A DNA stretch of 35,208 bases from Acidimicrobiia bacterium (GTDB lineage Bacteria > Actinomycetota > Acidimicrobiia > IMCC26256 > JAENVU01), in NCBI GenBank assembly GCA_025357995.1, contig JANYLF010000068.1, forward strand, positions 1 to 35,208, read 5' to 3'. The number at the start of each line of letters is the position of its first letter. Position 1 is the first letter of the stretch. The position numbers were made by a program, and so were the translations under genes. A model generated the notes under the pieces. That model saw only the letters and a program-made list of their open reading frames with translations. It was not told where the DNA came from and searched no databases. Shown here piece after piece: positions 4,648-31,981 of the stretch.

Positions 4648-5522
4648 CCGCGCCGGTACGCGTGGGGCTCGCAGGCGCCGGTCCATGGGCACGCATGGTG
4701 CACGCGCCGCTGCTCGCCGCGGGGCCCGAAACCGAGCTGGTCGGTGTGTGGTCGCGCACTCCAGAGCACGCGGCGGCACTGGCCGCCGAACACAACGTTG
4801 TTGCGTTCGCGTCGTTCGACGCGTTGCTCGAGGCGGTTGATGCGGTGGCGCTCGCCGTCGTCCCCGCAGCCCAGCCCGACCTCGCGGTGCGGGCGGCCAA
4901 TGCCGGAAAGGCGTTGCTGCTCGAGAAGCCGCTGAGTGTCGACGTGGACGGCGCGCGCCGCATCGCGGACGCCGTTGCGGTCAACCGGGTCGGTTCCCTC
5001 ATGCTGCTCACGTATCGCTTCGCCGACGTCGTGCGCGACTTTCTCGCTGAGGCCGCGGCCATGCAGCCGACCGGCGGCCGCGCGTGCTTCATCTCCGGCG
5101 CGTTCCTCGGCGGCGCGTTCGCGGGCGGGTGGCGCCTCGAACTCGGCGCACTGCTCGATGTCGGTCCGCACATTCTCGATCTCGTAGAGGCCGCGCTCGG
5201 GCCGGTCGTCGAGATCCAGGGCCACGGCGATCCGCGCGCGTGGGTCGGCCTGCTCCTCACTCACGAGAACGGCGCCTGCAGCGAGGTCACGCTGTCGTGT
5301 GCGAGCGCAATCGAACCGAGTCGCACCGAGGTCGAGGTGTACGGACGCGAGAAGTCCTTGTTCGTCGATGCACGCTCCGGCGCCCGCGCGGAGTCGTTCG
5401 CGCGAGTGCGCGCCGAGTTCGCACAGATCGCGCGCACCGGCGGGCCGCACCCGTGCGACGCCGCGCGTGGCCTCGTACTCCAGGAACTGATCGCGCGCGC
5501 CGAACGCGCCCTCGAGGCCTGA
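4644..5522 (+). CDS. Gfo/Idh/MocA family oxidoreductase
   Basis: N-terminal Rossmann VGLAGAGPWARMVHAPLL and the EKP motif (LLLEKPLS). ATGA overlap with the M14 stop at 4644-4647. The 411-aa track ORF is an N-terminal over-extension. Confidence 0.75.
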   Translation: MTAPVRVGLAGAGPWARMVHAPLLAAGPETELVGVWSRTPEHAAALAAEHNVVAFASFDALLEAVDAVALAVVPAAQPDLAVRAANAGKALLLEKPLSVDVDGARRIADAVAVNRVGSLMLLTYRFADVVRDFLAEAAAMQPTGGRACFISGAFLGGAFAGGWRLELGALLDVGPHILDLVEAALGPVVEIQGHGDPRAWVGLLLTHENGACSEVTLSCASAIEPSRTEVEVYGREKSLFVDARSGARAESFARVRAEFAQIARTGGPHPCDAARGLVLQELIARAERALEA

Positions 5523-5534
5523 GGTATCGGGCCG

Positions 5535-5942
5535 ATGGGCGCGGTCGTCATCGCGGCGCTCGTGATCCTCACGACGATCGGACTCCTGCTCGGTGGGCGA
5601 CACCTCTATCTGCGCCTCGACCGTCCCGGAGGGTTCGAGTGTTCGCTCCGAGTCGTGAGCGGCAACGTTCCCGGACTGGGGGCGAAGTTCTGCGCAGGCT
5701 ACGCCGGTCCCGAGGTGGCGCGTCTGTACTGGCGACGGATCGCGCGTCCCGGCGCGAAGGTGCGGTTCGCTCTCGAGACCGTGCGCATCGATCAAGGCCG
5801 TCGACCCCGGATGGGAGAGCGCCTCGCGATCCCGGCCACGTTTACGATCATCCCTGTCGAAATCGGCGACGACACGCAGCTCGAACTCGCGCTACCGAGT
5901 CGCCACCTCAAACGTCTCATCGCCCTCCTCGCGAACTCCTAA
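5535..5942 (+). CDS. DUF2550-like small membrane-anchored protein
   Basis: 135 aa. N-terminal TM helix (VVIAALVILTTIGLLLGG) followed by a soluble domain. Layout and C-terminal ELALPSRHLKRLIALL resemble actinobacterial DUF2550 proteins (from memory). Confidence 0.5.
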   Translation: MGAVVIAALVILTTIGLLLGGRHLYLRLDRPGGFECSLRVVSGNVPGLGAKFCAGYAGPEVARLYWRRIARPGAKVRFALETVRIDQGRRPRMGERLAIPATFTIIPVEIGDDTQLELALPSRHLKRLIALLANS

Positions 5943-5968
5943 GCCGCGCGCCGGTAGTGTGCGCGGGC

Positions 5969-7669
5969 ATGCCGAGCGAGCCGTTTGACGTCGTCGTGAT
6001 TGGGGGCGGGCACAACGGGCTCGTCGCCGCGGGACTGCTCGCAAAACGCGGCGCGCGCGTCACCGTGCTGGAACGACGCGACCAAGTGGGCGGCGCGGCC
6101 ATCACGGAACAGCCGTGGGGCCCCGACTTCAAGATGACGGCGTTGTCGTACGTGGTCAGCCTGATGCCACCGACGATCCTGCGCGAACTCCAACTCGAGC
6201 GCCACGGCTATCGCATCCTCCCTCAGGGTCCGTACTTCGCGCCGCGCCCCGACGGCCCGGCCCTGCGCCTGCCCGACGAGCCTGCGGCACGTCACGCGGC
6301 GATCTCGCAATTCTCGACGCACGACGCCGACGCCTACGAACGCTGGGAAGCCTGGCTCGGCGGTCTCGCGGACGTACTCGCGCCGCTGCTGACCGAGACG
6401 CCGCCCCGGCTCGGCTCGCATCGACCGACCGACCTGCTTGCACAAGGTCGGTTCGCGTGGATGGCGCGTGAGTGGGATCAACGCGCCGTCGCCGACATCA
6501 CGCGCCTCTTCACGATGAGCATCGCGGATCTCGTCGAGGAAGAATTCGAATCCGACGCGATGCGGGGCGTGCTCTCGGTCAGCGGTGTGATCGGTACCTG
6601 GGCCGGTCCGCGTTCGGCGGGCACGGCCTACGTAATGGCCCACCACAAGGTGGGTGACGTGGGCGACGGCCAGCTCGGCGCGTGGGGATTCCCGGAAGGT
6701 GGCATGGGTTCGGTCACCCGCGCGCTTCGGGACGCGGCGATGTCGTTCGGTGCGGATGTTCGCACGAACACGTCGGTGGCGCGGATCCTCGTACGCGACG
6801 GCGCGACGTACGGCGTCGTGACCGAGAAGGGCGACGAGATACTCGCCGACTGTGTGATCGCGGCCACGCATCCCCAGATCACGTTCCTCCATCAGCTCGA
6901 CGCGGCCGACCTCCCCTCCGACTTCGTCGATGACATCCGGCGCTGGAAGACGCGCAGTGGAACCGTCAAGGTGAACCTCGCGCTCGATCGTCTTCCCGAG
7001 TTCAGCTCGGCGCCCGGTTTCGATCCCGACGTGCACGGCGGCACCATCGTGCTCGCGCCGAGCCTCGACCACGTGGAGAACGCATTTCAGGATGCGGTCG
7101 CGGGTCGACCAGCGGCCGCGCCGTTCGCCGACATCTGCATCCCGTCGGTGTTCGACCGCACGCTCGCACCCGAAGGCAAGCACGTGATGTCGATGTTCAC
7201 GCAGTGGGTGCCGTGCGCGTGGTCCGACGCCAAAATGGGCACGATCGGCGCGTCTACTGCGGATCGCGTGGGGGTGGTGCCGATCGCCGCCGATCCACAT
7301 CGCGAAGAGCTCGACGCCTACGCGGATCGCGTCATCGCGCAGGTCGAGGCGGTCGCGCCCGGGTTCACCAGCTCGATCCTGCACCGCCAGGTGATCGGCC
7401 CGTACGACATGGAAAACACCTACGGCTTGATCGGCGGCAACATCTTCCACGGCGAACTCTCACCCGCGCAGCTCTTCCACATGCGCCCCGCGCCCGGCTA
7501 CGCCGACTACCGCACACCCATCCGAGGGTTGTACCAAGCGTCGAGCGCAACCCACGGCGGCGGCGGTGTGACGGGAATCCCGGGCCTCAAGGTCGTCGAG
7601 CAAATCACCCACGACCGCGCCACGCTTCGGGATCGACTGCGTCACACCGCGATCCGCAAACGCGGGTGA
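5969..7669 (+). CDS. NAD(P)/FAD-dependent oxidoreductase, phytoene desaturase (CrtI) family
   Basis: Dinucleotide fold DVVVIGGGHNGLVAAGLLAKRGARVTVLERRDQVGG, about 566 aa. ATG at 5969 is in frame within the 861-aa track ORF, whose upstream part overlaps other genes. Confidence 0.8.
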   Translation: MPSEPFDVVVIGGGHNGLVAAGLLAKRGARVTVLERRDQVGGAAITEQPWGPDFKMTALSYVVSLMPPTILRELQLERHGYRILPQGPYFAPRPDGPALRLPDEPAARHAAISQFSTHDADAYERWEAWLGGLADVLAPLLTETPPRLGSHRPTDLLAQGRFAWMAREWDQRAVADITRLFTMSIADLVEEEFESDAMRGVLSVSGVIGTWAGPRSAGTAYVMAHHKVGDVGDGQLGAWGFPEGGMGSVTRALRDAAMSFGADVRTNTSVARILVRDGATYGVVTEKGDEILADCVIAATHPQITFLHQLDAADLPSDFVDDIRRWKTRSGTVKVNLALDRLPEFSSAPGFDPDVHGGTIVLAPSLDHVENAFQDAVAGRPAAAPFADICIPSVFDRTLAPEGKHVMSMFTQWVPCAWSDAKMGTIGASTADRVGVVPIAADPHREELDAYADRVIAQVEAVAPGFTSSILHRQVIGPYDMENTYGLIGGNIFHGELSPAQLFHMRPAPGYADYRTPIRGLYQASSATHGGGGVTGIPGLKVVEQITHDRATLRDRLRHTAIRKRG

Positions 7670-7689: not shown

Positions 7690-8412
7690 CTAACGGGGCG
7701 TCAACACGCAGAACTCGTTCCCATCGGGATCGGCCATCACGACCCAACTGACCGCGCCCTGGCCGATGTCGATTCGCGTCGCGCCGAGGGAAAGGAGGCG
7801 GTCGACCTCCGCTTGCTGGTCAACGTCGACGGGCGGAGCGATATCAAGATGGAGTCGGTTCTTCGCGAGCTTCGGAGCAACCGGCGGGCCACCCCAGGTG
7901 ATCAACGGACCGGTGCCGTCTGGCGGGCGGATTGCGGTCTCTCCGTCCTGATCCCAGACCAACGGCCAGTCGAGCGCGGCGCTCCAGAAGTACCCGACCG
8001 CACGCGTACCGTCGTACGTGATCGAGCCGAGGCGTTCGCAGCCGGCGAGGAAGTTGTTGTCCGGCTCGATGACGCATAACTCGTTGCCTTCCGGGTCGGC
8101 GAGCACGACGTGACCCTCATCCGGGCTCTGACCGATATCGATGTGGCGAGCGCCGAGCTCGACCAACCTCACGACCGTCTCCTTCTGGTCGTCGACGGAC
8201 GTGGTCGTGAGATCGAGATGCAGTCGGTTCGGGCCCGTCTTCGGCTCGGGGACCGGCTCGAACAGAATGTCGAACCTGGTGGCGTCCGTCGGCACGAGCC
8301 CGAACTCACCCTCGGTCTCGTCGATTTCCCACCCGAGCGCGTCACTCCAAAAGCGCGCGAGCCGGATGGGATCGTTCGCGTCGATACAGAGCGAGACAAG
8401 TCGAGAGGTCAT
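7690..8412 (-). CDS. VOC (glyoxalase/bleomycin-resistance fold) protein with two tandem glyoxalase-like domains
   Basis: Two homologous halves, each ending ...NRLHLD...LGA..IDIGQ....VV.ADP.GNE.CV. SD-like GGAGGAAGG (reverse complement of 8420-8428) lies 7 nt upstream of the start. Confidence 0.75.
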   Translation of the reverse strand: MTSRLVSLCIDANDPIRLARFWSDALGWEIDETEGEFGLVPTDATRFDILFEPVPEPKTGPNRLHLDLTTTSVDDQKETVVRLVELGARHIDIGQSPDEGHVVLADPEGNELCVIEPDNNFLAGCERLGSITYDGTRAVGYFWSAALDWPLVWDQDGETAIRPPDGTGPLITWGGPPVAPKLAKNRLHLDIAPPVDVDQQAEVDRLLSLGATRIDIGQGAVSWVVMADPDGNEFCVLTPR

Positions 8413-8466: not shown

Positions 8467-9723
8467 TCAGGAAGTGGCCACGAGCGCGGCTTCGAACGCG
8501 GCGAGGGCTTGGTCGATCTCGGCTTCCGAGACGATCAGTGGCGGCATCCAGCGCACCACGTTGCCGCCGGAACCGGCGTTCATGAGCAACAAGTGACCCT
8601 CGTCGCGACAATGCGCGGTCACGGCGGCCACCCGCGCCGCATTCGGCGCGCCGTTCGCATCGACCAACTCGCACCCGACCATCAGACCCGGTCCGCGCAC
8701 GTCGATGATCTCGGGGTGCGCGACCGCGAGCGAGCGCAAACCGGAACGAAGTTGCTCGCCGCGCGCGTTGACGTTCTCCATGAAGCCGGGGGCGGTCAGC
8801 ACGTCAATGGTGGCCAGCGCGGCTGCGCACCCGATCGGATTTCCCCCGTAGGTGCCCCCGTGCGCGCCCGTCGCCCACCGGCGCACCAGTTCGGCCGACG
8901 CGCCGATGGCGGAGATCGGGAACCCGGACGCGATTCCCTTCGCCATGATCACGACGTCGGGCACCACGCCGAGCGCGTCGATCGCAAACATCGCGCCGGT
9001 GCGGCCGAAGCCTGATTGCACTTCGTCGGCCACGTACAAGAACCCGTGCTGCTCGCAGCGCGCTTTGATGCCTTGAGCGAACGCGGCCGGTGCCGGCAGG
9101 TACCCACCTTCACCGAGGACCGGTTCCATGACGATCGCCGCCGTCTCACTGGGCGCGGTCTGCGTGGCGAGCAACAGATCGAACGCGTCGAGCGCGCGAC
9201 CAACCGCTTCGTCCTCTGCCAGACCGTCGCGCACCGCGTGCGGGAACGGGGTGACGAAAACACCACTCGGCAGCGGTTGATATCCGGCGCGGTATCCGGT
9301 CTTCGACGTGGTCATTGCCATCGTGAGATGCGACCGACCGTGGAAGGAACCTTGGAACACGACGATGTTCGGTCGACCGGTCGCGTGTTTCGCCAACTTC
9401 ACCGCAGCCTCGGTCGCTTCGGCGCCCGAGTTCGCGAAAAAGAACGTGTCGATCCCGCTCGGCGAGATACCTGCCAGCCGCTCGGCCAGCTGTTCGAGTA
9501 ACGGATGGCGATAACAGTTCACCTGCGCGTGAATGAACCGCGCGGCCTGGGCCTGGATCGCCGCCACCACGGTCGGGTGACAATGCCCGGTGCTCGTGAC
9601 CGCAATCCCACTCGTGAAGTCGAGATATTCGGTGCCGTCGGCGGTGGTAACGATGCACCCCGACCCCGACACCACCGGGAGATCGGTGACCTGAAACCAC
9701 ACGTCGGCGAGATGTGAACCCAT
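8467..9723 (-). CDS. Class III PLP-dependent aminotransferase (4-aminobutyrate/omega-amino acid type)
   Basis: ADEVQSGFGRTG motif, candidate PLP-lysine in VVIMAKGIASGFP, 418 aa. Confidence 0.88.
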   Translation of the reverse strand: MGSHLADVWFQVTDLPVVSGSGCIVTTADGTEYLDFTSGIAVTSTGHCHPTVVAAIQAQAARFIHAQVNCYRHPLLEQLAERLAGISPSGIDTFFFANSGAEATEAAVKLAKHATGRPNIVVFQGSFHGRSHLTMAMTTSKTGYRAGYQPLPSGVFVTPFPHAVRDGLAEDEAVGRALDAFDLLLATQTAPSETAAIVMEPVLGEGGYLPAPAAFAQGIKARCEQHGFLYVADEVQSGFGRTGAMFAIDALGVVPDVVIMAKGIASGFPISAIGASAELVRRWATGAHGGTYGGNPIGCAAALATIDVLTAPGFMENVNARGEQLRSGLRSLAVAHPEIIDVRGPGLMVGCELVDANGAPNAARVAAVTAHCRDEGHLLLMNAGSGGNVVRWMPPLIVSEAEIDQALAAFEAALVATS

Positions 9724-10346: not shown

Positions 10347-11456
10347 TTAGGACCCGGGCCGCACGCCAGTCATGGGGCGGCCGTCGGTCCACGGAGCGGG
10401 ATCGCCCGGCTCCCACCGACCGCGGCCGAACGGCTCGCGCTCGATGCGCTCGCGCGCCATCCGTTCCGCGGCCCGACCGGGAGGAAGCGACCACTCGCGG
10501 CCGAGCGCAAACACCCGAGCCGTCGTGTCCTCGATGCGCGCGGTCGCGGCCAACGCTCGGTCGTGCGAATATCCGACGAACTCCTCGGCGATGTTCAGGA
10601 TCCCACCCGCGTTCACCACAAAGTCGGGCGCGTAGAGAATCCCTCGGGCCGCGAGTGCATCGTCCATGTCGTCCGACGCGAGTTGGTTGTTCGCACCGCC
10701 GCAGATGATTTCGCACCGCAACGAACCCACCGTCGACGGATTCACCACCTCACCCAGCGCGCACGGCGCCAGGATGTCGCACTCGGCGATCACTGCATCC
10801 TCCGGCGCGACGACTGCGACGCCCAGCTCCGCGACCAATGCCGACACGCGGGCCGGGTCCACATCGGACACCGATACCCGGGCACCGTCCGCGAGCAACG
10901 ACCGCGCGAGCCCGGACCCGACCTTGCCCGCTCCCTGAATCACCACGTGCCGGTCGGCGAGTGTGGTCGAACCCCACCGTTCCTGTGCGGCGGCGCGCAT
11001 TCCGGCCCAGACTCCGAACGCGGTGGTGGGCGACGGATCGCCCGAGCCGCCCAGCGATTCGCTGACGCCGGTGACCCACGGCGTGACCGCCGCGATCCCG
11101 TCCATGTCGGCGGTCGTCGCGCCTACGTCCTCGGCCGCGAGATACCGACCGCCGAGCTCGTCGATCGCGTGGCCGAGCACCGCCAGCTGCTCCGGCGTGC
11201 GCGGCCGCGTGGGATCGGTCCACTGCACCACGGCCTTCCCGCCTCCTTGACGCAGCCCGGCGGCCGCCGCCTTGAGCGACATCGCTTCCGCCAGCCGCAG
11301 CGCGTCGGCGATCGCCGCGCCGTCGTCGGGGTAGTGCCAGAACCGAATACCACCGAGTGAGGGTCCTAGCGCAGTGGAGTGAATCGCGATGACGGCGCGG
11401 ATCCCCGTGTCCGGATCCGCGACGAATACCACCTGTTCGTGTCCGTGCGCGGCCAT
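10347..11456 (-). CDS. Glu/Leu/Phe/Val dehydrogenase family (leucine/valine dehydrogenase-like)
   Basis: LGGIRFW, catalytic-Lys box GGGKAVV, Rossmann VVIQGAGKVGSGLA. Start trimmed to the ATG at 11456 (MAAHGHEQVVF...). The 473-aa track ORF has an Arg-rich upstream extension. Confidence 0.85.
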   Translation of the reverse strand: MAAHGHEQVVFVADPDTGIRAVIAIHSTALGPSLGGIRFWHYPDDGAAIADALRLAEAMSLKAAAAGLRQGGGKAVVQWTDPTRPRTPEQLAVLGHAIDELGGRYLAAEDVGATTADMDGIAAVTPWVTGVSESLGGSGDPSPTTAFGVWAGMRAAAQERWGSTTLADRHVVIQGAGKVGSGLARSLLADGARVSVSDVDPARVSALVAELGVAVVAPEDAVIAECDILAPCALGEVVNPSTVGSLRCEIICGGANNQLASDDMDDALAARGILYAPDFVVNAGGILNIAEEFVGYSHDRALAATARIEDTTARVFALGREWSLPPGRAAERMARERIEREPFGRGRWEPGDPAPWTDGRPMTGVRPGS

Positions 11457-11509
11457 GACCTCGGAGATCTGCACCTCGGGGACTGTAGGACCACTGATTC
11501 CGAGAGGTC

Positions 11510-11926
11510 CTACGAGGGCGCGTCCGTCGGATCGAGGTCGAGCGCGAGTGAGTTCACGCAGTACCGCATCCCCGTCGGGTTCGGACCGTCGGGAAAGACG
11601 TGGCCCAGATGCCCGCCGCACCGCGCGCACACGATCTCGGTGCGCACCATGCCGTGATCGGAATCGGTGCGTTCCTCGACCGCGCCCGGCTTGGCCGCAG
11701 CCCAGAACGACGGCCAACCGCTCCCGGAGTGAAACTTGGTATCCGACGCAAACAACTCCGCGCCGCATCCCGCGCAGCGATACATGCCGTCGGTTTCCGT
11801 GTCGTTGTACGCACCGGTGAACGCGCGCTCGGTGGCGGCCTCCCGCAACACCGCGTACTGCTCGGAGCTCAGACGGGCGCGCCAGTCGTCGTCGGTCAGG
11901 GCGGTCGGGTCGAGATCTTCAGCCAT
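11510..11926 (-). CDS. msrB: Peptide-methionine (R)-S-oxide reductase
   Basis: Two CxxC zinc motifs (CAGCG, CARCG), catalytic box [19 protein letters not shown]; 138 aa. Confidence 0.9.
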
Positions 11927-24626: not shown

Positions 24627-25382
24627 TTACGCCGCGACAGGATCCGGGATGAGGATCCCGTGTTCGCCCACCGGCCCCACGCGCAAGCCGCGTCCACGCA
24701 GCTCGTCGGCCAGGATCGGCAGTGCCTCGAGCGCGGAGTACCAACACTCGGGTGCCGACGTGCAGTCCGAATCGTGCAACAGCACCGTCCCGCCGTCGAC
24801 GTAACCGTGCAACACGTCGGCCACGACCGATCTTGGTGTTGCCTCGGCCCGCCAATCGCGGCCCCACGCCGTCCACAACACACTGCGCAGCCCGGCCCGA
24901 CGCGCGCCGCGAACGCCGCCGAGCGACAACGTTCCGTAGGGCGGTCGGAACCACACTGGTTCGACACCCGACGCAGACGCGACCGCGTCGCGCGCACGGC
25001 TGATGTCGTCCGCGACCGCGCGAGGCGACAAGCGGAGCTGCGACCTATGGGTGTCGCCGTGGACGCCGATCTCGTGGCCCGCGGCGGCAACTTCGGCCGC
25101 GAGGCTGGGCGCGCGCCGCGCCATGTCGCCCAACATGAAGAAGGTCGCGTGCACGTCGAGGGCGTCGAGCACCCGAAGAAAGTGCGGCGTCGAGGTGGGA
25201 TCCGGACCATCGTCGAACGTCAACGCGACGTGGCCACGAAGTCCCACACCGGCGAGGCGGGGAGAGATCCGTCGTCCGACGCTCGAGAGCGCGACCAACG
25301 ACGGAGCGACGTGCGCGGCAACCCCGACCGTGCCGACCACACCCAGTCCCACGCCGACGACGACCGCCGGGCGCACGGTCAC
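24627..25382 (-). CDS. Polysaccharide deacetylase (NodB homology domain) with N-terminal TM anchor
   Basis: VALTFDDGPDP, ATFFMLG, GHEIGVHGDTHRS, and LLHD at the end of the domain. GTG at 25382 overlaps the upstream TGA (GTGA). The 456-aa track ORF is over-extended. Confidence 0.85.
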   Translation of the reverse strand: MTVRPAVVVGVGLGVVGTVGVAAHVAPSLVALSSVGRRISPRLAGVGLRGHVALTFDDGPDPTSTPHFLRVLDALDVHATFFMLGDMARRAPSLAAEVAAAGHEIGVHGDTHRSQLRLSPRAVADDISRARDAVASASGVEPVWFRPPYGTLSLGGVRGARRAGLRSVLWTAWGRDWRAEATPRSVVADVLHGYVDGGTVLLHDSDCTSAPECWYSALEALPILADELRGRGLRVGPVGEHGILIPDPVAA

Positions 25383-27154
25383 CGGAGCTCGGAGAGTGGT
25401 GACGACCGGAGGCTCTCGGCGGCCAGCTGGTGTTGGATCTCTGCGAGCGCGATCCGCGTTGCGTCTGGTGTCGCGCCTCGCCCGTCGAGGACGTACACCG
25501 CTCGATCCCGCAAGGACTTCGGGAGGTTCGCCGGGCGAATGAGATAGTCGGGGAGCACGAGCCGCTGACCCCTGCGCCGGGCAAAGATCTGGTCGAACGC
25601 GTCGAACCGGCGGCCCGGGACGAACTCGAGCACCTTGGCACCCGTGACATTCTTCGTAATCGCGTCCGTCGACGTCACGACGTCGGTCTCGGCCCGCAAC
25701 GGTCGGAACGGCCGACCTTGGCCCCAACCGCCGTTGCCGAGATCGACCCGTCGATCCACCAGCGCCTGCATTGCCGAACCGTCGACCGTTTGGACCGTCT
25801 GACCATCGACGATCGCAGTGACGTTCATCTGGTCGAGCATGCGCCGAATCGCCGGCTGCTCCACCTCGGCCTTCGACAAACGCACACCGAGGAACACTTT
25901 GTCGTGGGCCGAGCGCGGTGGTGCGGCCACGCCCACACCAAAGGCCGCGATGCCCTGGGCGCCAAGGGTGAGCATTCCGTAAACCGCGAGCGTGCAAAAG
26001 GTCGCCACCCGCACGCGGTGCGGGAGCTTCGGCATCTGGACCGGGTTCTCGACGCCGTCACGCCCGCGACGCGTGGCCTCACCGAGCACGTCGTCGGTGG
26101 CATCACCCGCGAACAGCGCGTGGGCACGCGCGATCTGCTCTTGGCGCGGCGCACTCGGCCGACTCAACACCGTCAAGGCGTCGGCCAGCTCGGCACCGTC
26201 GCGTGCGTACCGGGTGACTCCGAGCTGCGACATCCCCTCGGCGTTGTCCTTACCGTGACCCGCGATCGGCAAGAACGTGACCACCGGAAGCCCGACCGCA
26301 AACGCCTCATTTGCGGTAAGTCCGCCGGCGTTTTCCACCATGACGTCGCACGCGGCCATGAGTCGCGGCATGTCGTTGGTCCAGCCGAGGATCGAGCCGC
26401 GCCCGCGCGCTTCGAGCTCGACCTTGAGTTTCTCGTCACGCGCGCACACGACGACGGGATGGAAATCTCCGGCCGCGCAGATCGCGTCGAAGGTGCCGGT
26501 GATATCGCCGACGCCCCATGATCCGGCCACGACCAACACCGCACGTTCGCTGTCGGTGAGACCGAACTCGGCACGCGCCTCGCTGCGCCCCGCGCCGACT
26601 GCGGTACGGAACCGATCCGCGACCAAAGGACCAGGAGCGCGAGCGTCTTCGCCGCCGCGGGTCCGCGCGGTGGCGGCCGCGAACTCACTCGTCGCGAGAT
26701 GCACGTCCACGTGCGGATGCACCCACAGCGGATGCACCGCGAAATCGGTGAGGTACGTGATGACGGGAACCTTGAGCCATCGCTTCTTGCGCATGTTCCC
26801 GAGTACGAGCGACGACAGGGGATACGTGGACACCACGACATCCGCGTCCGTCTCGGTGATGGCCCGGCGCAGACGCTTGCCGGCGACGAACGTATCGAGG
26901 CGAACGATGAATCCCCAGGTGGAGGGGAGCTTGTACCAAAGCCGGTACGTGAGCTCGTAGCTCCACGGCGCGACCCGGAGCTGCACCAGGTAGCTCCACT
27001 TGATGAACCACCCAATGCCGAACGGGCAGCAGTGGAGGAAGTCCACGATGCGGACGGTGTGGCCCTGGGCTTCGAGGCGCTTGCGGAGCTCGTGCGCCGC
27101 GCCGTCGTGGCCCGCGCCCATCGACGCCGAAACGATCAGAATCCGCCGAGCCAT
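25379..27154 (-). CDS. GT28 / MGDG-synthase-family glycosyltransferase fused to a TM helix and a ~175-aa C-terminal domain (degenerate NodB-like)
   Basis: RILIVSASMGAGHDGAAHEL, VVVSTYPL, ITYLTDFAVHPLW, VMVENAGGLTANEAFAVGLPVV. TM helix VATFCTLAVYGMLTLGAQGIAAFGVGV at aa ~381-408. 591 aa from the ATG at 27154. Confidence 0.8.
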   Translation of the reverse strand: MARRILIVSASMGAGHDGAAHELRKRLEAQGHTVRIVDFLHCCPFGIGWFIKWSYLVQLRVAPWSYELTYRLWYKLPSTWGFIVRLDTFVAGKRLRRAITETDADVVVSTYPLSSLVLGNMRKKRWLKVPVITYLTDFAVHPLWVHPHVDVHLATSEFAAATARTRGGEDARAPGPLVADRFRTAVGAGRSEARAEFGLTDSERAVLVVAGSWGVGDITGTFDAICAAGDFHPVVVCARDEKLKVELEARGRGSILGWTNDMPRLMAACDVMVENAGGLTANEAFAVGLPVVTFLPIAGHGKDNAEGMSQLGVTRYARDGAELADALTVLSRPSAPRQEQIARAHALFAGDATDDVLGEATRRGRDGVENPVQMPKLPHRVRVATFCTLAVYGMLTLGAQGIAAFGVGVAAPPRSAHDKVFLGVRLSKAEVEQPAIRRMLDQMNVTAIVDGQTVQTVDGSAMQALVDRRVDLGNGGWGQGRPFRPLRAETDVVTSTDAITKNVTGAKVLEFVPGRRFDAFDQIFARRRGQRLVLPDYLIRPANLPKSLRDRAVYVLDGRGATPDATRIALAEIQHQLAAESLRSSPLSELR

Positions 27155-27228
27155 GGAAAGCTGAGCGTACTGCGAGAAGGCTGAGAACGCCTGGTTTTGA
27201 GGGCGAGCGCGAGAGAGGGAGCCCGCCG

Positions 27229-28245
27229 CTACCAGCCGAGGATCGCGCCGGCAATCATCCCCAGGATGAGCAGGCCACCGGCGCGGCGGGTCAGCAGGAA
27301 CGAATGCGGGGCGAACCACAGCGGCCAGACCGGATTCGGCATGGGCGATTCAGCCGGTTTGGGCGACCCGTAAACCTTCCACACCCTGGCCAGCAGCGGG
27401 AGCGACGCGAACACGAGCAGCGTGCCGATCGGGAGTATCCGGGCGACGACCAGACCCGCGACGAGCGCGTAGAACACCACGAACATGCCGCGGGTCACCT
27501 GACGTGCGGGACCGTCACCGAGGATCACCGGCAGCGTGCGCGTGCCCGCGGGTCCGTCCCACGGTGCCTTGTCGATGTGCTTGCCCATCAGGACCGTCGT
27601 GCACAACACCGCGTACGGCAACGACGCAAGGAGAACCGCGCCGGGGATGGTTCCCGTGGCCGCGTAGTACACGCCGCCGACCATGAGCGGACCCCACACC
27701 GCGACGACCGTCGGCTCACCGAGGCCATGCTTCTTCAAGCGAATCGGCGGCGCGGTGTACGCGGCCGACAGCGCGAAGCCGCCGAGCGCGAAGCCGATGA
27801 TCGCGGGACCGCGTGCCACGGTGAGAGAAATCATGATGCCGAGGCACATCACGTTCACGATGAGCGCGTACATCGCGAGCCGGCCACGGGTGACCACACC
27901 GGAGATCACCGGGTGCGGCGAGTAGAGGTTGCGCGGGTAATCCTTGGTGTCGGTACCGACTTCGAGGTCGAACAGGTCGTTCATGATGTTGTTCGCCATA
28001 TGTGCGAGCACGAGGCCGACCGCGGCAACGACGAAGTACACCCAGTTCACGCTCGCATCACGGAAGACCGCGAGCAGACCGCCCAGCCCCGCGGCCACGA
28101 GCGTCATCGGCAGCACGCCCGCGCGCGTGAGCCACAACCACTTGGACACCGGATCCAGCGTGCCCTTCGGCGGGTTGGTGGTGGCCAGGACGTACAGCCA
28201 CTTCTTCGGGAGGCTCTCCCGCTGGCCAACCACGGCGTCAGTCAT
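27229..28245 (-). CDS. UbiA-superfamily prenyltransferase (MenA-like motifs)
   Basis: Asp-rich motif NNIMNDLFDLEVGTD and second motif GKHIDKAPWDGPAGTRTLPVILG. 8-9 TM. 338 aa from the ATG at 28245. Confidence 0.8.
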   Translation of the reverse strand: MTDAVVGQRESLPKKWLYVLATTNPPKGTLDPVSKWLWLTRAGVLPMTLVAAGLGGLLAVFRDASVNWVYFVVAAVGLVLAHMANNIMNDLFDLEVGTDTKDYPRNLYSPHPVISGVVTRGRLAMYALIVNVMCLGIMISLTVARGPAIIGFALGGFALSAAYTAPPIRLKKHGLGEPTVVAVWGPLMVGGVYYAATGTIPGAVLLASLPYAVLCTTVLMGKHIDKAPWDGPAGTRTLPVILGDGPARQVTRGMFVVFYALVAGLVVARILPIGTLLVFASLPLLARVWKVYGSPKPAESPMPNPVWPLWFAPHSFLLTRRAGGLLILGMIAGAILGW

Positions 28246-28287: not shown

Positions 28288-28367
28288 CGCGGAACTGTCG
28301 TACAAGGTGTTCACTTCTTCTGCAACGATCCGGCCGACCGCGAGACAACACGCGGAACGATCGTCAG
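28288..28367. promoter_or_regulatory. Two copies of CGCGGAAC-NN-TCGT spaced 63 bp apart in the divergent UbiA / Rieske-fusion control region
   Basis: 28288-28301 (cgcggaactgtcgt) and 28351-28364 (cgcggaacgatcgt), 12/14 identical. Read directly. Confidence 0.3.
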
Positions 28368-28387: not shown

Positions 28388-28394
28388 GAGGAGG
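28388..28394 (+). promoter_or_regulatory. Shine-Dalgarno GAGGAGG for the Rieske-GltS-like gene
   Basis: GAGGAGG followed by a 6-nt spacer and the ATG at 28401. Confidence 0.6.
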
Positions 28395-28400
28395 CACCCG

Positions 28401-30011
28401 ATGGAAATGGTGAAGATCGCAACCTGGAGTGAGATTCCGGACCGCGAACCGGTGGGCGTCATGCTCGAAGGGATCGACCTCGTCATCGTTCGCCAAGGCG
28501 ACGAGCACTCAGTGCTCTACGGACGCTGTCTTCACCGCGGCGCGCTGCTCGCCGACGGCCACATTCAAGGTGAAGACTTGATCTGCGGCGTGCACGGGTG
28601 GGACTACCGCATCGAGAGCGGTGTGAGTGCGTACAACAACGCCGAGGCGCTCGAGAAGTTCACCAGCGCGGTCGCGGGCGACGACCTGCTCGTCGACCGC
28701 ACCGAGGTATTGCATTTCTCGATGCGCCACCCGCAACCGTTCGATGCCGACGTGTACCAGGGTTACTACCAAGACCCGCACATGGTGCCCGAGGAGCCGT
28801 TCGTCGCGTACATCCACGAACTCGCCGCGAACGGTCTCACCAAGACCGGCCATCATGGTCCTCTCGGCGCAATGGGCGTGCCGCGTGACGACCTCCCGAA
28901 GTGGGATCACATCCAATTCGTCACCGCGCAGTTGGCGCGCCTCCCCAAGCTCGACGAGGAGCCCGTCGGCACCGACGTCTGTATCGGCCCGAACGCCGAC
29001 AAGCCGTTGTGGCTCGACATCCCACTGTTCGTCTCCGACATGAGCTTTGGCGCGTTGTCGCAAGAGGCGAAGACCGCGCTCGCGCGTGGCGCGGAACTCG
29101 CGGGCACCGGCATCTGCTCGGGCGAGGGCGGCATGTTGCCCGAGGAGCAGGCCGAGAACAGTCGGTACTTCTATGAGCTCGCGTCGGCGCGGTTCGGGTG
29201 GAACATCGACGTGCTCAAGAAGGTGCAGGCGTTCCACTTCAAGGGTGGCCAGGGCGCGAAGACGGGCACTGGTGGCCACCTGCCCGGCGACAAGGTCGTG
29301 GGCAGGATCGCGTCGGTCCGCAACCTTCCGGAAGGCACCGCGGCCATCTCCCCCGCACGCTTTCCGGACTGGAGGTCGATCGACGATTTCCGACGCTTCG
29401 CCGACGTCGTGCGTGAGGAGTCCGGCGGGATCCCGATCGGGTTCAAGCTCTCCGCGCAGCACATCGAGGAAGACCTCGACGCCGCGTTGGCCATCGGAGT
29501 CGACTACGTGATCCTCGACGGTCGCGGCGGCGGTACCGGCGCGGCACCCTTGTTGTTCCGCGACAACATCAGCGTGCCGACCATCCCCGCGTTAGCGCGA
29601 GCACGGCGCCACCTCGACCGTCGGAACCGGCGCGACATCACGCTCGTTGCGACCGGTGGGCTCCGTCACGCACCGGACTTCGCAAAGGCACTTGCCTTGG
29701 GTGCCGACGCGGTCGCAGTCGCGAACTCCGCGATCCAAGCGATCGGCTGTCTCGGGATGCGGGCATGCAACACGAACAACTGTCCCGTCGGCATCGCCAC
29801 CCAGAAGCCCCACTTGCGCGCCCGGCTGCCGGTGGACGAAGCCGCCGAACGATTGAATCGATTCCTGCGCGCGACCGTCGAGCTGATGCAGATCCTTGCC
29901 CGCGCGTGCGGGCACGACCACGTCCGCGAGTTCTCCGCCGACGATCTCACCACGTTCGACCGCGACATGGCGCACCTCACCGGCATTGCCTACGGCGGAG
30001 TCGCGCTCTGA
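28401..30011 (+). CDS. Rieske [2Fe-2S] domain fused to a glutamate-synthase-type FMN/[3Fe-4S] domain (no amidotransferase domain)
   Basis: CLH-x16-CGVH (aa 43-65). FVSDMSFGALS, KGGQGAKTGTGGHLPG, ILDGRGGGTGAAP. C-x5-C-x4-CP (CLGMRACNTNNCPVGIATQ, aa 450-462). 536 aa. Confidence 0.85.
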   Translation: MEMVKIATWSEIPDREPVGVMLEGIDLVIVRQGDEHSVLYGRCLHRGALLADGHIQGEDLICGVHGWDYRIESGVSAYNNAEALEKFTSAVAGDDLLVDRTEVLHFSMRHPQPFDADVYQGYYQDPHMVPEEPFVAYIHELAANGLTKTGHHGPLGAMGVPRDDLPKWDHIQFVTAQLARLPKLDEEPVGTDVCIGPNADKPLWLDIPLFVSDMSFGALSQEAKTALARGAELAGTGICSGEGGMLPEEQAENSRYFYELASARFGWNIDVLKKVQAFHFKGGQGAKTGTGGHLPGDKVVGRIASVRNLPEGTAAISPARFPDWRSIDDFRRFADVVREESGGIPIGFKLSAQHIEEDLDAALAIGVDYVILDGRGGGTGAAPLLFRDNISVPTIPALARARRHLDRRNRRDITLVATGGLRHAPDFAKALALGADAVAVANSAIQAIGCLGMRACNTNNCPVGIATQKPHLRARLPVDEAAERLNRFLRATVELMQILARACGHDHVREFSADDLTTFDRDMAHLTGIAYGGVAL

Positions 30012-31981
30012 TGGTCGCAACCCAGATGACACAGGACCCCAACGGATCCGTCTGGCACAAGGTGGCAGAGCTCGACGATGTCCCCGACGGGCGCGTACGG
30101 ACGGTACTGGCCGGGAAGCATTCGATCGCGCTCACGCGCGTCGGCGACCAGTACGGCGCGCTCGACAACCACTGTCCGCACCAAGGCGGTCCCCTCGGTG
30201 AAGGGTCTATCGAGAAGGGCCTGTTGCGGTGTCCGTGGCACGGGTACGACTACGACCCGCTCACCGGAACGCCGCCGTCGGGCTTCTCCGATGCACCGAA
30301 GTGCTTCCCGCTCGAGGTGCGCGCCGACGGCATCTACGTCGCGGTTGCTGTCGATGCGCCCCACGAACGCACCGTCTCGGACGTGATGGTCGAGACCATG
30401 GTCGAGTGGGGCGTCACCCATGTGTTCGGCATGGTCGGCCATTCCAACCTCGGATTCGCCGACGCAATGCGGCGCCAAGAGGTGGCCGGCAATCTCACGT
30501 TCGTCGGTATCCGCCACGAAGGTGCGGCCGCGTTTGCGGCGTCGGCGTACGGCAAGCTCACCGGCCGTCCCGCGGCGTGTTTCGCGATCGCCGGTCCGGG
30601 CTCCACCAACCTGCTCACCGGTTTGTACGACGCCAAGGTCGACCGCGCGCCAGTGCTCGCGATCTCCGGCCAAGTGCCGTCGAAGGTGCTGGGCCGCGGC
30701 GCCTTCCAAGACGTCGATCTCAACGCCGCGTTCGCCGCGGTGGCCAGCTACTCCAAGACCGTGCTCCCAAACTCGGACCACGCAGAGCTCATGACGCTGG
30801 CGTTGAAGCACGCGACGGTGCAGCGCGACGTCGCCCATCTCGTCTTCCCCGACGAAGTCCAGGAGAAGGTAGTGGGCGACGCGCCGCTGGCGTCGTCACC
30901 CGTCGGCCGAATCGGCGATGCGCGCATCGCGCCGCCTGACGCCGCGTTGGACGACGCGTTGGCGTTGATCGAAGGTGCCCGGCGGCCGGTCATCGTCGTG
31001 GGTCACGGCGTCCGCTTCGAGATGGACGCGGTGATGGAGCTGGCGGAGACGCTGCACGCGCCCGTGCTCACCACGTTCAAGGCGAAGGGCCAGGTCTCGG
31101 ACCACCATCCGCTCGGCGCCGGAGTACTCGGGCGAAGCGGCACGCCCGTCGCCAGCTGGCTCATGAACGAGTCGGACCTCTTGATCGTGCTGGGCGCGTC
31201 GTTCTCGAACCACACGGGGATCGCGTCGTACAAGCCGATCGTGCAGGTTGACTTCGACCCGATGGCGCTGGGTCGGTTCCATCCCGTGACGGTTCCCGTC
31301 CAGGGTCACGCGGGCGTGACCGCGCGGCTGATGGTCGAGCGGCTCGCGCCCGGTGGCGACCGGGCGGACCAACGTCCCGACGTGGCCGCGCGTTGGGCGA
31401 TCTGGCGCGCCGAGAAGGCGCGGCGCGTGCTCGACGATCGCGGCGAGGGCGTCTCTTCCGCCGCGGTGTTCGACGCGATGAACCGTCACGTACCGAATGA
31501 CGCGGTCATCACCGTCGACGTCGGGAACCAGGCGTACTCATTCGGCCGCTACTTCGAATGTCACGAACAGTCGATCCTGATGTCGGGGTACCTCGGCTCC
31601 ATCGGCTTCGGTTATCCCGCGGCCATGGGGGCATGGGCCGCCGTCGGCGACACCCGCAAGATCGTCGCGGTCACCGGCGACGGCGGCTTCGGTCAGTACC
31701 TCGCGGAGATCACGACCGCGGTGAAATACCACATGCCGATCACGCACGTGCTGCTCGATAACGCCTCCCTGGGCAAGATCACCAAAGAACAACGCGCCGC
31801 CGAATACGAGGTGTGGCAAACGTCGTTACACAATCCCGACTTCGCGGCATACGCGGAGCTGTGCGGTGCGATGGGGATCCGAGTCGACGCGGCTTCCGAA
31901 CTCGACGATGCATTGGACCGCGCCATCACGCACGACGGCCCGGCGCTCGTCGCCGTCCAAGCCGATGCCGAGCTCGTGTAG
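30011..31981 (+). CDS. Rieske [2Fe-2S] domain fused to a pyruvate-oxidase/acetolactate-synthase-type thiamine-diphosphate enzyme
   Basis: CPH-x16-CPWH (aa 55-77). Pyr domain GIRHEGAAAFAASAYGKLTG and AGPGSTNLLTGLYDA. ThDP/Mg motif GDGGFGQY...LLDN. The ATG at 30011 shares one base with the upstream TGA. 656 aa. Confidence 0.85.
   Translation: MVATQMTQDPNGSVWHKVAELDDVPDGRVRTVLAGKHSIALTRVGDQYGALDNHCPHQGGPLGEGSIEKGLLRCPWHGYDYDPLTGTPPSGFSDAPKCFPLEVRADGIYVAVAVDAPHERTVSDVMVETMVEWGVTHVFGMVGHSNLGFADAMRRQEVAGNLTFVGIRHEGAAAFAASAYGKLTGRPAACFAIAGPGSTNLLTGLYDAKVDRAPVLAISGQVPSKVLGRGAFQDVDLNAAFAAVASYSKTVLPNSDHAELMTLALKHATVQRDVAHLVFPDEVQEKVVGDAPLASSPVGRIGDARIAPPDAALDDALALIEGARRPVIVVGHGVRFEMDAVMELAETLHAPVLTTFKAKGQVSDHHPLGAGVLGRSGTPVASWLMNESDLLIVLGASFSNHTGIASYKPIVQVDFDPMALGRFHPVTVPVQGHAGVTARLMVERLAPGGDRADQRPDVAARWAIWRAEKARRVLDDRGEGVSSAAVFDAMNRHVPNDAVITVDVGNQAYSFGRYFECHEQSILMSGYLGSIGFGYPAAMGAWAAVGDTRKIVAVTGDGGFGQYLAEITTAVKYHMPITHVLLDNASLGKITKEQRAAEYEVWQTSLHNPDFAAYAELCGAMGIRVDAASELDDALDRAITHDGPALVAVQADAELV

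Follow-up and report, generated by a model that had tools for sequence, protein, structure and literature searches.

A translationally coupled gene pair for two Rieske-tagged enzymes of the glutamate synthase and pyruvate oxidase types, kept together across bacterial phyla

We analyzed a 35,208-nt stretch of DNA (i.e., the window) from an Acidimicrobiia bacterium (GenBank assembly GCA_025357995.1, contig JANYLF010000068.1), a chromosomal fragment with a G+C content of 67%. Coordinates follow the numbering of the window, and the two genes of interest (gene 1 and gene 2) lie on its + strand. The two genes form a translationally coupled operon that encodes two cytoplasmic enzymes, each with an N-terminal ferredoxin-type Rieske [2Fe-2S] module, and the pair is kept as a unit across many bacterial phyla. 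Gene 1 joins its Rieske module to a glutamate synthase (GltS)-type flavin mononucleotide (FMN)/[3Fe-4S] core, and gene 2 joins its own to a thiamine diphosphate (ThDP) enzyme resembling PoxB and pyruvate oxidase (POX). The most economical reading of the sequences, which we hold tentatively and with somewhat less than even confidence, is that the two proteins would be wired directly, Rieske cluster to Rieske cluster, so that the oxidation of a 2-oxoacid would drive an FMN-dependent reduction. The elements of the operon are as follows.

28388-28394, + strand: Shine-Dalgarno sequence GAGGAGG, with a spacer of 6 nt to the ATG at 28401 (sequence reading).
28401-30011, + strand: gene 1, 536 amino acids, Rieske module plus glutamate synthase-type FMN/[3Fe-4S] core (open reading frame [ORF] and Pfam).
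28410-28631, + strand: gene-1 Rieske [2Fe-2S] module, amino acids 4 to 77 (PF00355, E 6e-13).
28527-28535 and 28584-28595, + strand: codons of the gene-1 Rieske ligand motifs CLH and CGVH (C43/H45/C62/H65).
28995-29912, + strand: Glu_synthase TIM-barrel FMN domain, amino acids 199 to 504 (PF01645, E 2e-86).
29748-29786, + strand: predicted [3Fe-4S] ligand motif C450-x5-C456-x4-C461-P462 (alignment to Azospirillum GltS).
30009-30013, + strand: TGATG junction, in which the gene-1 stop (TGA, 30009-30011) and the gene-2 start (ATG, 30011-30013) share base 30011.
30011-31981, + strand: gene 2, 656 amino acids, Rieske module plus PoxB/pyruvate oxidase-like ThDP enzyme with predicted binding of flavin adenine dinucleotide (FAD).
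30053-30271, + strand: gene-2 Rieske module, amino acids 15 to 87 (PF00355, E 5e-15).
30173-30181 and 30230-30241, + strand: codons of the gene-2 Rieske ligand motifs CPH and CPWH (C55/H57/C74/H77).
30371-30721, + strand: TPP_enzyme_N domain, amino acids 121 to 237 (PF02776, E 6.5e-36).
30518-30520, + strand: codon of Glu170 in RHEGAA, the putative cofactor-activating residue, opposite the first Glu of RHEE in PoxB.
30950-31324, + strand: TPP_enzyme_M central domain, amino acids 314 to 438 (PF00205, E 8.7e-32).
31517-31957, + strand: TPP_enzyme_C domain, amino acids 503 to 649 (PF02775, E 8.7e-34).
31676-31762, + strand: ThDP/Mg motif G556-D-G-G-F...D583-N584 (GDG-x(25-30)-N(N) pattern; alignment to PoxB, which has GDGGF...NN).

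An earlier note on this DNA, made from the letters alone, had described gene 1 as a Rieske module with a full ligand set on a GltS FMN domain that keeps C-x5-C-x4-CP, preceded by a strong Shine-Dalgarno sequence and devoid of a glutamine amidotransferase domain, and profile searches bore this description out. The Rieske and Glu_synthase domains scored 48.9 and 290.8 bits (Pfam gathering cutoffs, 20.3 and 20.4, respectively) and were the sole matches; no amidotransferase domain was found by Pfam or NCBIfam, the two sources on which this negative is based. The CxH and CxxH ligands are invariant in the alignment of the gene-1 Rieske module, with the pattern present in 100 of the 101 full-length gene-1 homologues, and all 101 carry the Cx5Cx4CP motif. 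Amino acids 212 to 501 aligned to GltS structures (7MFM, E 1e-36; 2VDC, E 4e-31), and the core was also aligned to the FMN domains of the GltS large subunits 1EA0 and 1LLW. In the structure alignment, the FMN-site motifs SGEGG and QGAK-G-GG-LPG-KV and the downstream Arg of GltS are retained; so are its substrate-site residues, yet these are retained family-wide too. C450, C456, and C461 match the columns of Cys1102, Cys1108, and Cys1113 of Azospirillum GltS (2VDC; residue numbers counted by hand), which we take to be its [3Fe-4S] ligands. The NCBIfam model NF008730 gave 131 bits (equivalog cutoff, 1047) and was covered at positions 865 to 1155 of 1490; three of the four domains of a canonical GltB or ferredoxin-dependent glutamate synthase (Fd-GOGAT) large subunit are absent. 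Gene 1 belongs to the FMN-domain family PF01645 but is not a canonical GltS large subunit. The same note had reported no GltD-like reductase in the window, and tblastn with the GltD-like and GXGXG-domain parts of P0346 likewise found neither there (E ≤ 0.01).

For gene 2, the reading frame opens at 29765, and the ATG at 30011 is the annotated, homologue-backed start (P0121; 100% identical, 656 amino acids), so that the one-base overlap noticed earlier stands. Its Rieske module scored 55.6 bits (cutoff, 20.3), and all 107 gene-2 homologues show the ligand pattern. Both Rieske modules lack the extra Cys pair of high-potential Rieske proteins and are therefore of the ferredoxin type. The assignment of the rest of gene 2 to the PoxB-type ThDP enzymes, with an activating Glu in RHEGAA and a GDGGF motif, agrees with all three TPP_enzyme domains and with the PoxB alignment (we take the Glu of RHEE in PoxB to be Glu50); every Pfam domain that follows from the earlier reading (i.e., Rieske, Glu_synthase, and TPP_enzyme_N, _M, and _C) was thus matched. 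The best structure match is PoxB (PDB 3EY9/3EYA, E 2e-66). The pyruvate oxidase model PRK08611 gave 394.6 bits (equivalog cutoff, 742), PRK09124 gave 304.5 (792), and TIGR02720 gave 295.6 (638), and gene 2 reaches none of the NCBIfam equivalog cutoffs for the pyruvate oxidase and ubiquinone-dependent pyruvate dehydrogenase families. It is the nearest relative of the PoxB/POX group and not an equivalog. The C terminus of gene 2 falls at PoxB residue ~526 to 533 of 572 (profile position 531 of 576), which means that the C-terminal PoxB tail is missing. The central domain of ThDP enzymes binds FAD in POX, PoxB, and acetohydroxyacid synthase (AHAS), and from its family membership gene 2 would be expected to bind FAD as well.

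The same comparisons bear on whether gene 2 is a redox enzyme at all. It might instead be a non-redox carboligase or lyase of the acetolactate synthase kind with a vestigial FAD, and both Rieske modules might be regulatory or sensing devices. ThDP enzymes of this family often retain a non-catalytic FAD, gene 2 scores 296 bits with the biosynthetic acetolactate synthase model TIGR00118, and a Lys stands at the column of PoxB Phe465 (position counted by hand), a residue which we take to sit between ThDP and FAD. We consider this interpretation very improbable, since the best family and structure matches are oxidase and dehydrogenase members, full Rieske ligand sets occur in all 107 gene-2 homologues, and the PoxB tail has disappeared in the same protein that has gained a redox module. 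At the column of PoxB Val380 (also counted by hand) the Val is kept, which is compatible with pyruvate as the substrate of gene 2.

Two sequence variants of gene 2 were also recorded. The alphaproteobacterial homologues (L037, L044, L049, L059, L065, L068, and L075) have CPH-x20/21-CPWH, i.e., an insertion of 4 to 5 residues between the ligand pairs that holds an extra cysteine (..DDKCW..), and the haloarchaeal copies have SDGGF in place of GDGGF in the ThDP motif.

The pairing was assessed in two sets of loci. In the set anchored on gene 1 (i.e., the best 80 genome loci), a locus was called paired if a Rieske-ThDP gene with at least 58% identity lay nearby and unpaired if at least 3 kb to each side contained none, which gave 36 paired loci, 25 unpaired loci, and 19 loci too short to judge. 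In the set anchored on gene 2 (i.e., metagenome contigs), 33 were paired, 12 were unpaired, 9 lacked gene 1 upstream, and 26 were undetermined. The two genes are thus adjacent in 36 of the 61 evaluable genomes and in 33 of the 54 evaluable metagenome contigs. Among these 69 pairs, 59 have gene 1 followed by gene 2 on one strand with a gap of less than 300 nt, most of them overlapping or within ~100 nt (estimated gaps in most pairs, −36 to +101 nt); a 4-base overlap is seen in the gene calls of two genome-size contigs (L161 and L162). The 10 other pairs have an intervening gene (n = 6), opposite strands (n = 3), or reversed order (n = 1). Tight pairs span Acidimicrobiia, Nitrospirota, Planctomycetota, Acidobacteriota, Alpha- and Gammaproteobacteria, Gemmatimonadota, and Chloroflexota, and the 36 genomes with the pair come from at least eight phyla. 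Paired and unpaired loci are interleaved in the gene-1 tree, and the pairwise identities of the two genes correlate (r = 0.875; 53 pairs).

Plasmids extend this pattern. All three PLSDB plasmids with a full-length gene 1 carry gene 2 too, at spacings of 1.4 kb, 4 kb, and 17 kb; the last value means that at least one seemingly unpaired case is merely unlinked. The haloarchaea with both genes are Salinirubellus sp. SYNS196 (L172), Halorubrum salinarum (pHAR01; L173/L177), in which the two are unlinked, and Halorarius halobius (L174), while gene 2 occurs alone on a Haloferax larsenii plasmid (L176) and on plasmid 1 of Mycobacteroides abscessus subsp. bolletii 50594 (L175). The flanking genes vary from locus to locus, and given the recurrence of the pair, the sole widely conserved neighbor of each gene with a redox-enzyme domain is the other gene. 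At the 25 unpaired gene-1 loci, no Pfam family occurs in more than 4 of the 140 flanking ORFs, which indicates that gene 2 is not replaced by another partner. A ThDP gene near the Poribacteria copies of gene 1 was considered as a partner and rejected; it is most likely an ordinary AHAS, because AHAS small-subunit and ketol-acid reductoisomerase domains are present among the same flanking ORFs. A single protein (P0369) has fragments of both enzymes, and we did not count it as a Rosetta-stone fusion since it looks like a frameshifted gene call.

Both genes are widely distributed. A search of 5.8 billion proteins returned at least 8,000 matches for each, and the best 120 of each all have the same domain set. 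Among species-representative genomes (one genome per GTDB species), at least 543 stretches contain relatives of gene 1. The best 80 of these encode a near-full-length Rieske module plus core with 66 to 95% identity to gene 1, and their hosts belong to Acidimicrobiia, Poribacteria, Nitrospirota, Nitrospinota, Planctomycetota, Alpha- and Gammaproteobacteria, Gemmatimonadota, Chloroflexota, and Acidobacteriota, with metagenome-assembled genomes of Acidimicrobiia as the closest relatives. Between bacterial phyla the gene-1 identity is 66 to 71%, which is unusually high for an enzyme of 536 amino acids. Full-length homologues on haloarchaeal megaplasmids, found in the PLSDB search, show ~61% (gene 1) and 57 to 60% (gene 2) identity. 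The module is thus very widespread, with matches in at least 543 stretches of species genomes and in thousands of metagenome proteins.

According to an exhaustive profile search, the core of gene 1 (amino acids ~125 to 534; window 28773-30008) is a module with swappable electron-carrier tags (examples: P0243, P0244, P0245, P0259, P0260, P0272, P0299, and P0314). A double CDGSH tag is found in P0243 and P0244, whose cores are 63 to 66% identical to that of gene 1 (60 to 66% for CDGSH-tagged relatives overall). Other tags consist of Fer4_19 plus CDGSH; rubredoxin, with an extra CCG domain; C-terminal rubrerythrin; and a 4Fe-4S ferredoxin, with or without GXGXG (i.e., the archaeal-type GltS arrangement). 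P0259 combines CDGSH, Fer4_19, and Rieske domains in one protein, and P0260 joins the core to rubrerythrin and a rubredoxin-like domain. Judging by its length (417 amino acids) and matched region, P0247 is possibly tagless. The regular fusion of the core to a small electron carrier fits single-electron exchange with a partner, as in ferredoxin-dependent GltS (Fd-GltS; PMC8097209).

The choice of tag is related to the presence of a ThDP partner. No ThDP enzyme was found within 7 kb of a CDGSH-tagged core at the seven loci examined (six distinct proteins; loci from Nitrosococcus oceani, Alkalilimnicola, and Nitrospira are included). The contrast between 0 of 7 CDGSH-tagged loci and 36 of 61 Rieske-tagged loci (p = 0.0035; a small sample) indicates that the ThDP partner is associated with the Rieske tag. 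Small as the sample is, this tag specificity is the best indirect support that we found for a specific Rieske-Rieske coupling.

Under direct coupling, electrons would flow as follows. The ThDP of gene 2 would decarboxylate a small 2-oxoacid, probably pyruvate, and two electrons would pass from ThDP to FAD and then leave singly through the fused Rieske cluster, which would replace the membrane- and quinone-docking C-terminal tail of PoxB. The gene-1 core would be the electron-accepting half of a ferredoxin-dependent glutamate synthase, with its Rieske module as a built-in ferredoxin that would feed the [3Fe-4S] cluster and then FMN. The FMN would reduce a 2-imino or 2-oxo dicarboxylate, the likeliest substrate being 2-iminoglutarate formed from 2-oxoglutarate and free ammonia, which would yield glutamate. 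Together, the two proteins would make up a closed redox couple with no need for NAD(P)H, i.e., an oxygen-tolerant functional analogue of the chain from pyruvate:ferredoxin oxidoreductase (PFOR) through ferredoxin to Fd-GOGAT. Such a closed loop would explain why the two-gene cassette recurs in unrelated genomic contexts.

Several observations weigh against direct coupling. The synteny that the earlier note had proposed to survey holds for the 59 adjacent and co-oriented pairs and fails for the ~40 to 50% of the copies of each gene that stand without the other within the available sequence: the partner is not nearby at 25 of 61 gene-1 loci and at 12 to 21 of 54 gene-2 loci, and all seven gene-1 loci of Poribacteria are unpaired. 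The two Rieske modules share 29% identity, and nothing marks them as a matched pair. Nitrogen-assimilation genes are not among the conserved neighbors, and a stand-alone FMN domain that lacks an amidotransferase would depend on free ammonia or on some other substrate. The AlphaFold2 model of gene 1 is poor (mean predicted local distance difference test score, 63.5; cluster loops, <50) and lends no support to a Rieske-Rieske contact. Rieske ferredoxins usually have potentials near −150 mV. In Fd-GltS, the [3Fe-4S] cluster is at −280 mV and the FMN is at −240 mV (PMC8097209), so that one step, from a Rieske cluster to a [3Fe-4S] cluster of this kind, is probably uphill. Finally, the rubrerythrin-fused P0260 and the rubredoxin-fused CD0828 of Clostridioides difficile (PMC11980386) were discussed as electron donors or are most plausible in that role, and these donor-like relatives imply that the core may run oxidatively.

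CD0828 is the only experimentally studied cousin of the gene-1 core. It is a rubredoxin-tagged core encoded in the rbr-sor operon, which PerR controls; its deletion results in sensitivity to H2O2 and air, it hands electrons on to Rbr and Sor very slowly, and its physiological reaction has not been established (PMC11980386). The fusion of CDGSH domains to the core has been designated type-5 CISD, with no function assigned (PMC3174974, PMC5859297).

An oxidative core would be at home in a sequential catabolic pair, in which gene 1 would oxidize glutamate or another amino acid and gene 2 would oxidatively decarboxylate the resulting 2-oxoacid. Electrons in gene 1 would then run from the substrate through FMN and [3Fe-4S] to the Rieske cluster, and both Rieske modules would feed a shared third-party acceptor encoded elsewhere (e.g., a reductase, a respiratory component, or a peroxidase-type sink). 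A core that acts as an electron source fits the domain makeup of P0260 and both the operon context and the deletion phenotype of CD0828 (PMC11980386). The ferredoxin type of both Rieske modules is also consistent with this scheme, the single occurrence of either gene is what a common external partner would lead one to expect, and the surroundings of unlinked gene-2 copies are rich in redox proteins (i.e., DoxX, FMN_red, flavodoxin, and dihydrolipoyl dehydrogenase). The shared acceptor itself is the difficulty. No candidate for it is conserved beside either gene, and a four-electron output without a dedicated sink fits poorly with a two-gene cassette found in varied contexts. CD0828 gave up its electrons to Rbr and Sor only very slowly (PMC11980386), and a generic acceptor would leave the Rieske-specific ThDP pairing unexplained. 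We therefore regard a catabolic pair, the main rival to direct coupling, as possible but doubtful.

Regulatory sequences provided a further line of evidence, a signal that is new here and was missed by the earlier note. In the 155-nt interval between the probable start of the divergent UbiA gene and gene 1, a single block (TGCAACGAT-N12-GAGAC) is conserved among close relatives and the rest has diverged, and the sister clade (L008 to L011 and L015) has GTGTAACG...G(G/A)GAC at the same distance from gene 1. The copy in the window is the following.

28322-28346, + strand: promoter candidate GCAACGATCCGGCCGACCGCGAGAC of the form GYAACG-N14-15-GRGAC, 79 nt upstream of the gene-1 ATG (alignment).

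We scanned both strands of 160 loci (3.8 Mb) for GYAACG-N12-19-GRGAC and obtained 48 matches. Sixteen of them lie upstream of gene 1 or gene 2 on the correct strand (L001 to L011, L015, L081, L090, L107, and L109), compared with 0.87 expected (i.e., ~18-fold enrichment). Fifteen are located 61 to 83 nt before the gene-1 start, and the remaining one is in L107, a locus with gene 2 only, 7 nt before the extrapolated gene-2 start; a second copy in L107 faces a divergent DUF5996 gene. The window itself holds a single copy. A promoter of an extracytoplasmic function (ECF) sigma factor would be expected to show a −35 element with AAC, a spacer of ~15 to 17 nt, a short GC-rich −10 element, and a cognate ECF sigma gene nearby. 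The AAC-containing upstream element resembles the −35 element of such promoters, and GYAACG...GRGAC is accordingly put forward as a candidate ECF-type promoter. The operon in Acidimicrobiia appears to be driven by it and would probably be switched on under redox or envelope stress.

A gene pair for an ECF sigma factor and a short (88 to 130 amino acids) zf-HC2 anti-sigma factor adjoins gene 2 in 31 of 116 loci that contain gene 2 and in 0 of 44 loci with gene 1 only (p = 2e-5). The pair is directly downstream of gene 2 in L009 to L011, L015, and L109, and the anti-sigma factor is soluble, carries HxxxCxxC, and is weakly RsrA/ChrR-like. No DUF5996, ECF sigma, or anti-sigma gene was found in the window. 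Examples of the pair are at L009:13728-14546, L171:10097-11013, L170:10525-10797, and L059:7447-8447, with 27 more loci. The promoter-like motif and the ECF association hint at stress regulation.

Other regulatory elements were considered and dropped. A SigR/SigH-type promoter (GGAAT-N18-GTT) matched 4 of 97 upstream regions, and GYAACG...GRGAC was preferred. A riboswitch or other known RNA upstream of gene 1 was rejected, as no Rfam family matched the gene-1 5′ region at the gathering score or at E ≤ 1. Inside the operon, neither a sigma-70 consensus promoter nor an intrinsic terminator was found above chance. The motif also occurs within the region-4 coding sequence of ECF sigma genes (..NALEISET..; L006:16541, L007:17689, L082:4644, and L086:369), just before the anti-sigma gene; these matches are probably coincidental in homologous coding sequence, the alternative being an internal promoter.

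A common promoter type raises the question of whether the two genes share a regulator and nothing else. They could belong to one ECF-sigma regulon for thiol, oxidative, or metal stress and encode independent enzymes with generic ferredoxin or reductase partners and unrelated substrates. The motif stands upstream of gene 1, upstream of gene 2 in L107, and upstream of the divergent DUF5996 gene in L107, and sigma/anti-sigma genes accompany gene 2 in the proportion given above; moreover, genes for thiol, sulfur, and metal stress abound around the haloarchaeal and mycobacterial plasmid copies (on the haloarchaeal plasmids: DsrE, rhodanese, TauE/SafE, MerA, GST-N, TlpA, and thioredoxin). We nevertheless think it unlikely that co-regulation is the whole story, because a stop/start overlap and a fixed gene order across phyla typify subunits or pathway partners, and ECF control is compatible with direct coupling too.

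Taken together, the motif, the ECF pair, the stress-gene contexts, and CD0828 point to a stress-induced redox role and not to housekeeping nitrogen assimilation. A fuller version of direct Rieske-Rieske coupling, which we offer as a speculative and rather unlikely proposal, would make the two proteins an oxygen-tolerant, pyridine nucleotide-independent pair in which the oxidation of pyruvate (or 2-oxoglutarate) would power the synthesis of an amino acid (glutamate or a different one) from free ammonia and a 2-oxoacid. In this proposal, a redox-sensing ECF sigma factor with its ZAS anti-sigma factor would switch the system on when NAD(P)H is scarce, and the system would be an aerobic counterpart of the PFOR-ferredoxin-Fd-GOGAT chain across bacteria and haloarchaea.

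Both superfamilies are well studied, but no function has been described for either fusion or for the pairing of the two; a full-text literature search found no description of the Rieske-tagged forms or of the gene-1/gene-2 pairing. Gene 1 shares with the FMN domain of Fd-GOGAT and the GltS alpha subunit (1LLW/1OFD, 1EA0/2VDC, and 7MFM) the TIM barrel, Cx5Cx4C, SGEGG, QGAK, and Arg, and it would resemble Fd-GltS in taking its electrons from a one-electron Fe-S carrier. Unlike GltS, it has no amidotransferase domain, central domain, or GXGXG beta-helix and no GltD in the window, and unlike in Fd-GltS, the carrier is fused and is a Rieske module instead of a plant-type ferredoxin. With CD0828 (PMC11980386) and type-5 CISD (PMC3174974), gene 1 has in common a small one-electron module, a linker, and an FMN/[3Fe-4S] core of ~400 amino acids, and both CD0828, in oxidative-stress operons, and the gene-1 type of locus, with stress-type regulatory neighbors, have a setting related to stress. 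The tag of gene 1 is a Rieske module, however, and the ThDP partner was seen only with the Rieske form (0 of 7 CDGSH loci).

Gene 2 shares the three-domain ThDP/FAD fold with its best matches, i.e., Escherichia coli PoxB (3EY9/3EYA), CidC, and Lactobacillus pyruvate oxidase (1POX), and it is PoxB-like in the activating Glu, the GDG...N motif, and the Val at the Val380 column. It differs from PoxB in its N-terminal Rieske module, in the Lys that replaces Phe465, and in having ~40 to 45 fewer C-terminal residues. The C-terminal tail of PoxB is a lipid-binding, autoinhibitory/activation peptide. The Rieske modules themselves resemble Rieske-type ferredoxins and NirD-like proteins (T4moC [1VM9], AndAb, and HcaC; PF00355, PF13806, and PF22543) in the CxH-x16-CxxH pattern and the length of ~100 amino acids, and as in ferredoxin-type Rieske proteins generally, the disulfide Cys pair of the bc1/b6f type is absent. 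In contrast to free shuttles between reductases and oxygenases, they are fused to flavoenzymes, and there is no oxygenase or reductase partner in the neighborhood of the two genes. If direct coupling applies, the pair would be analogous to the PFOR-ferredoxin-Fd-GOGAT chain in that 2-oxoacid electrons would reach [3Fe-4S]/FMN without pyridine nucleotides, whereas the donor would be a ThDP/FAD enzyme of the POX type instead of the ThDP/[4Fe-4S] enzyme PFOR and the carriers would be fused Rieske clusters.

If the coupling were demonstrated, the pair would become a new kind of two-protein oxidoreductase. Aerobes could then feed low-potential single electrons from 2-oxoacids into a GltS-type site without ferredoxin pools or NAD(P)H, and the tagged short GltS-like proteins would, as an entire class, gain a function. 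The proposal is directly testable in cultured hosts (i.e., Salinirubellus sp. SYNS196, Halorarius halobius ZY10, Halorubrum salinarum RHB-C, and Acidobacteria bacterium Mor1).

Several neighboring genes deserve mention. The earlier note had suggested that the divergent UbiA gene and the convergent RidA gene may be functionally related to the pair. We did not retain either as a functional partner: UbiA is kept only in the nearest relatives (L002 to L007), and conservation of RidA is limited to L003 and L004, at a non-adjacent position. A DUF5996 gene (PF19459; ~275 to 290 amino acids) recurs beside or between the two genes at 25 loci (e.g., L041:11740-12612, L059:13611-14489, L021:11630-12505, and L055:151-975) and sits between them in Nitrospirales; the full-text literature search found no mention of this family. 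A gene for a Na+/H+ (cation:proton) antiporter is located directly upstream of gene 1 in Alpha- and Gammaproteobacteria (L059:8725-9987 and nine other proteobacterial loci), between gene 1 and gene 2 in Halorarius (L174:1992-3224), near gene 2 on the M. abscessus plasmid (L175:2295-3914), and near a CDGSH-tagged relative in Nitrosococcus (L163:10471-12177). On that mobilizable M. abscessus plasmid, gene 2 adjoins flavodoxin-family, TetR, and antiporter genes. The annotated loci with gene 2 only have DoxX, FMN_red, MOSC, and DinB_2/MST neighbors.

Elsewhere in the window, a group of genes has a flavor of amino acid and amine catabolism and is not kept beside gene 1 and gene 2 in other genomes.

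5084-7669, + strand: amine oxidase-like flavoprotein.
7690-8412, − strand: double glyoxalase-domain protein.
8467-9723, − strand: class-III aminotransferase.
10347-11768, − strand: Glu/Leu/Phe/Val-dehydrogenase-family protein.

Closer to the operon (24627-27319, − strand), a 646-amino-acid ORF for a glycosyltransferase resembling monogalactosyldiacylglycerol synthase overlaps by ~600 nt with a 456-amino-acid polysaccharide deacetylase ORF on the same strand. These two genes and UbiA are syntenic in the closest relatives only, and the listed starts of the two overlapping ORFs are probably too far upstream.

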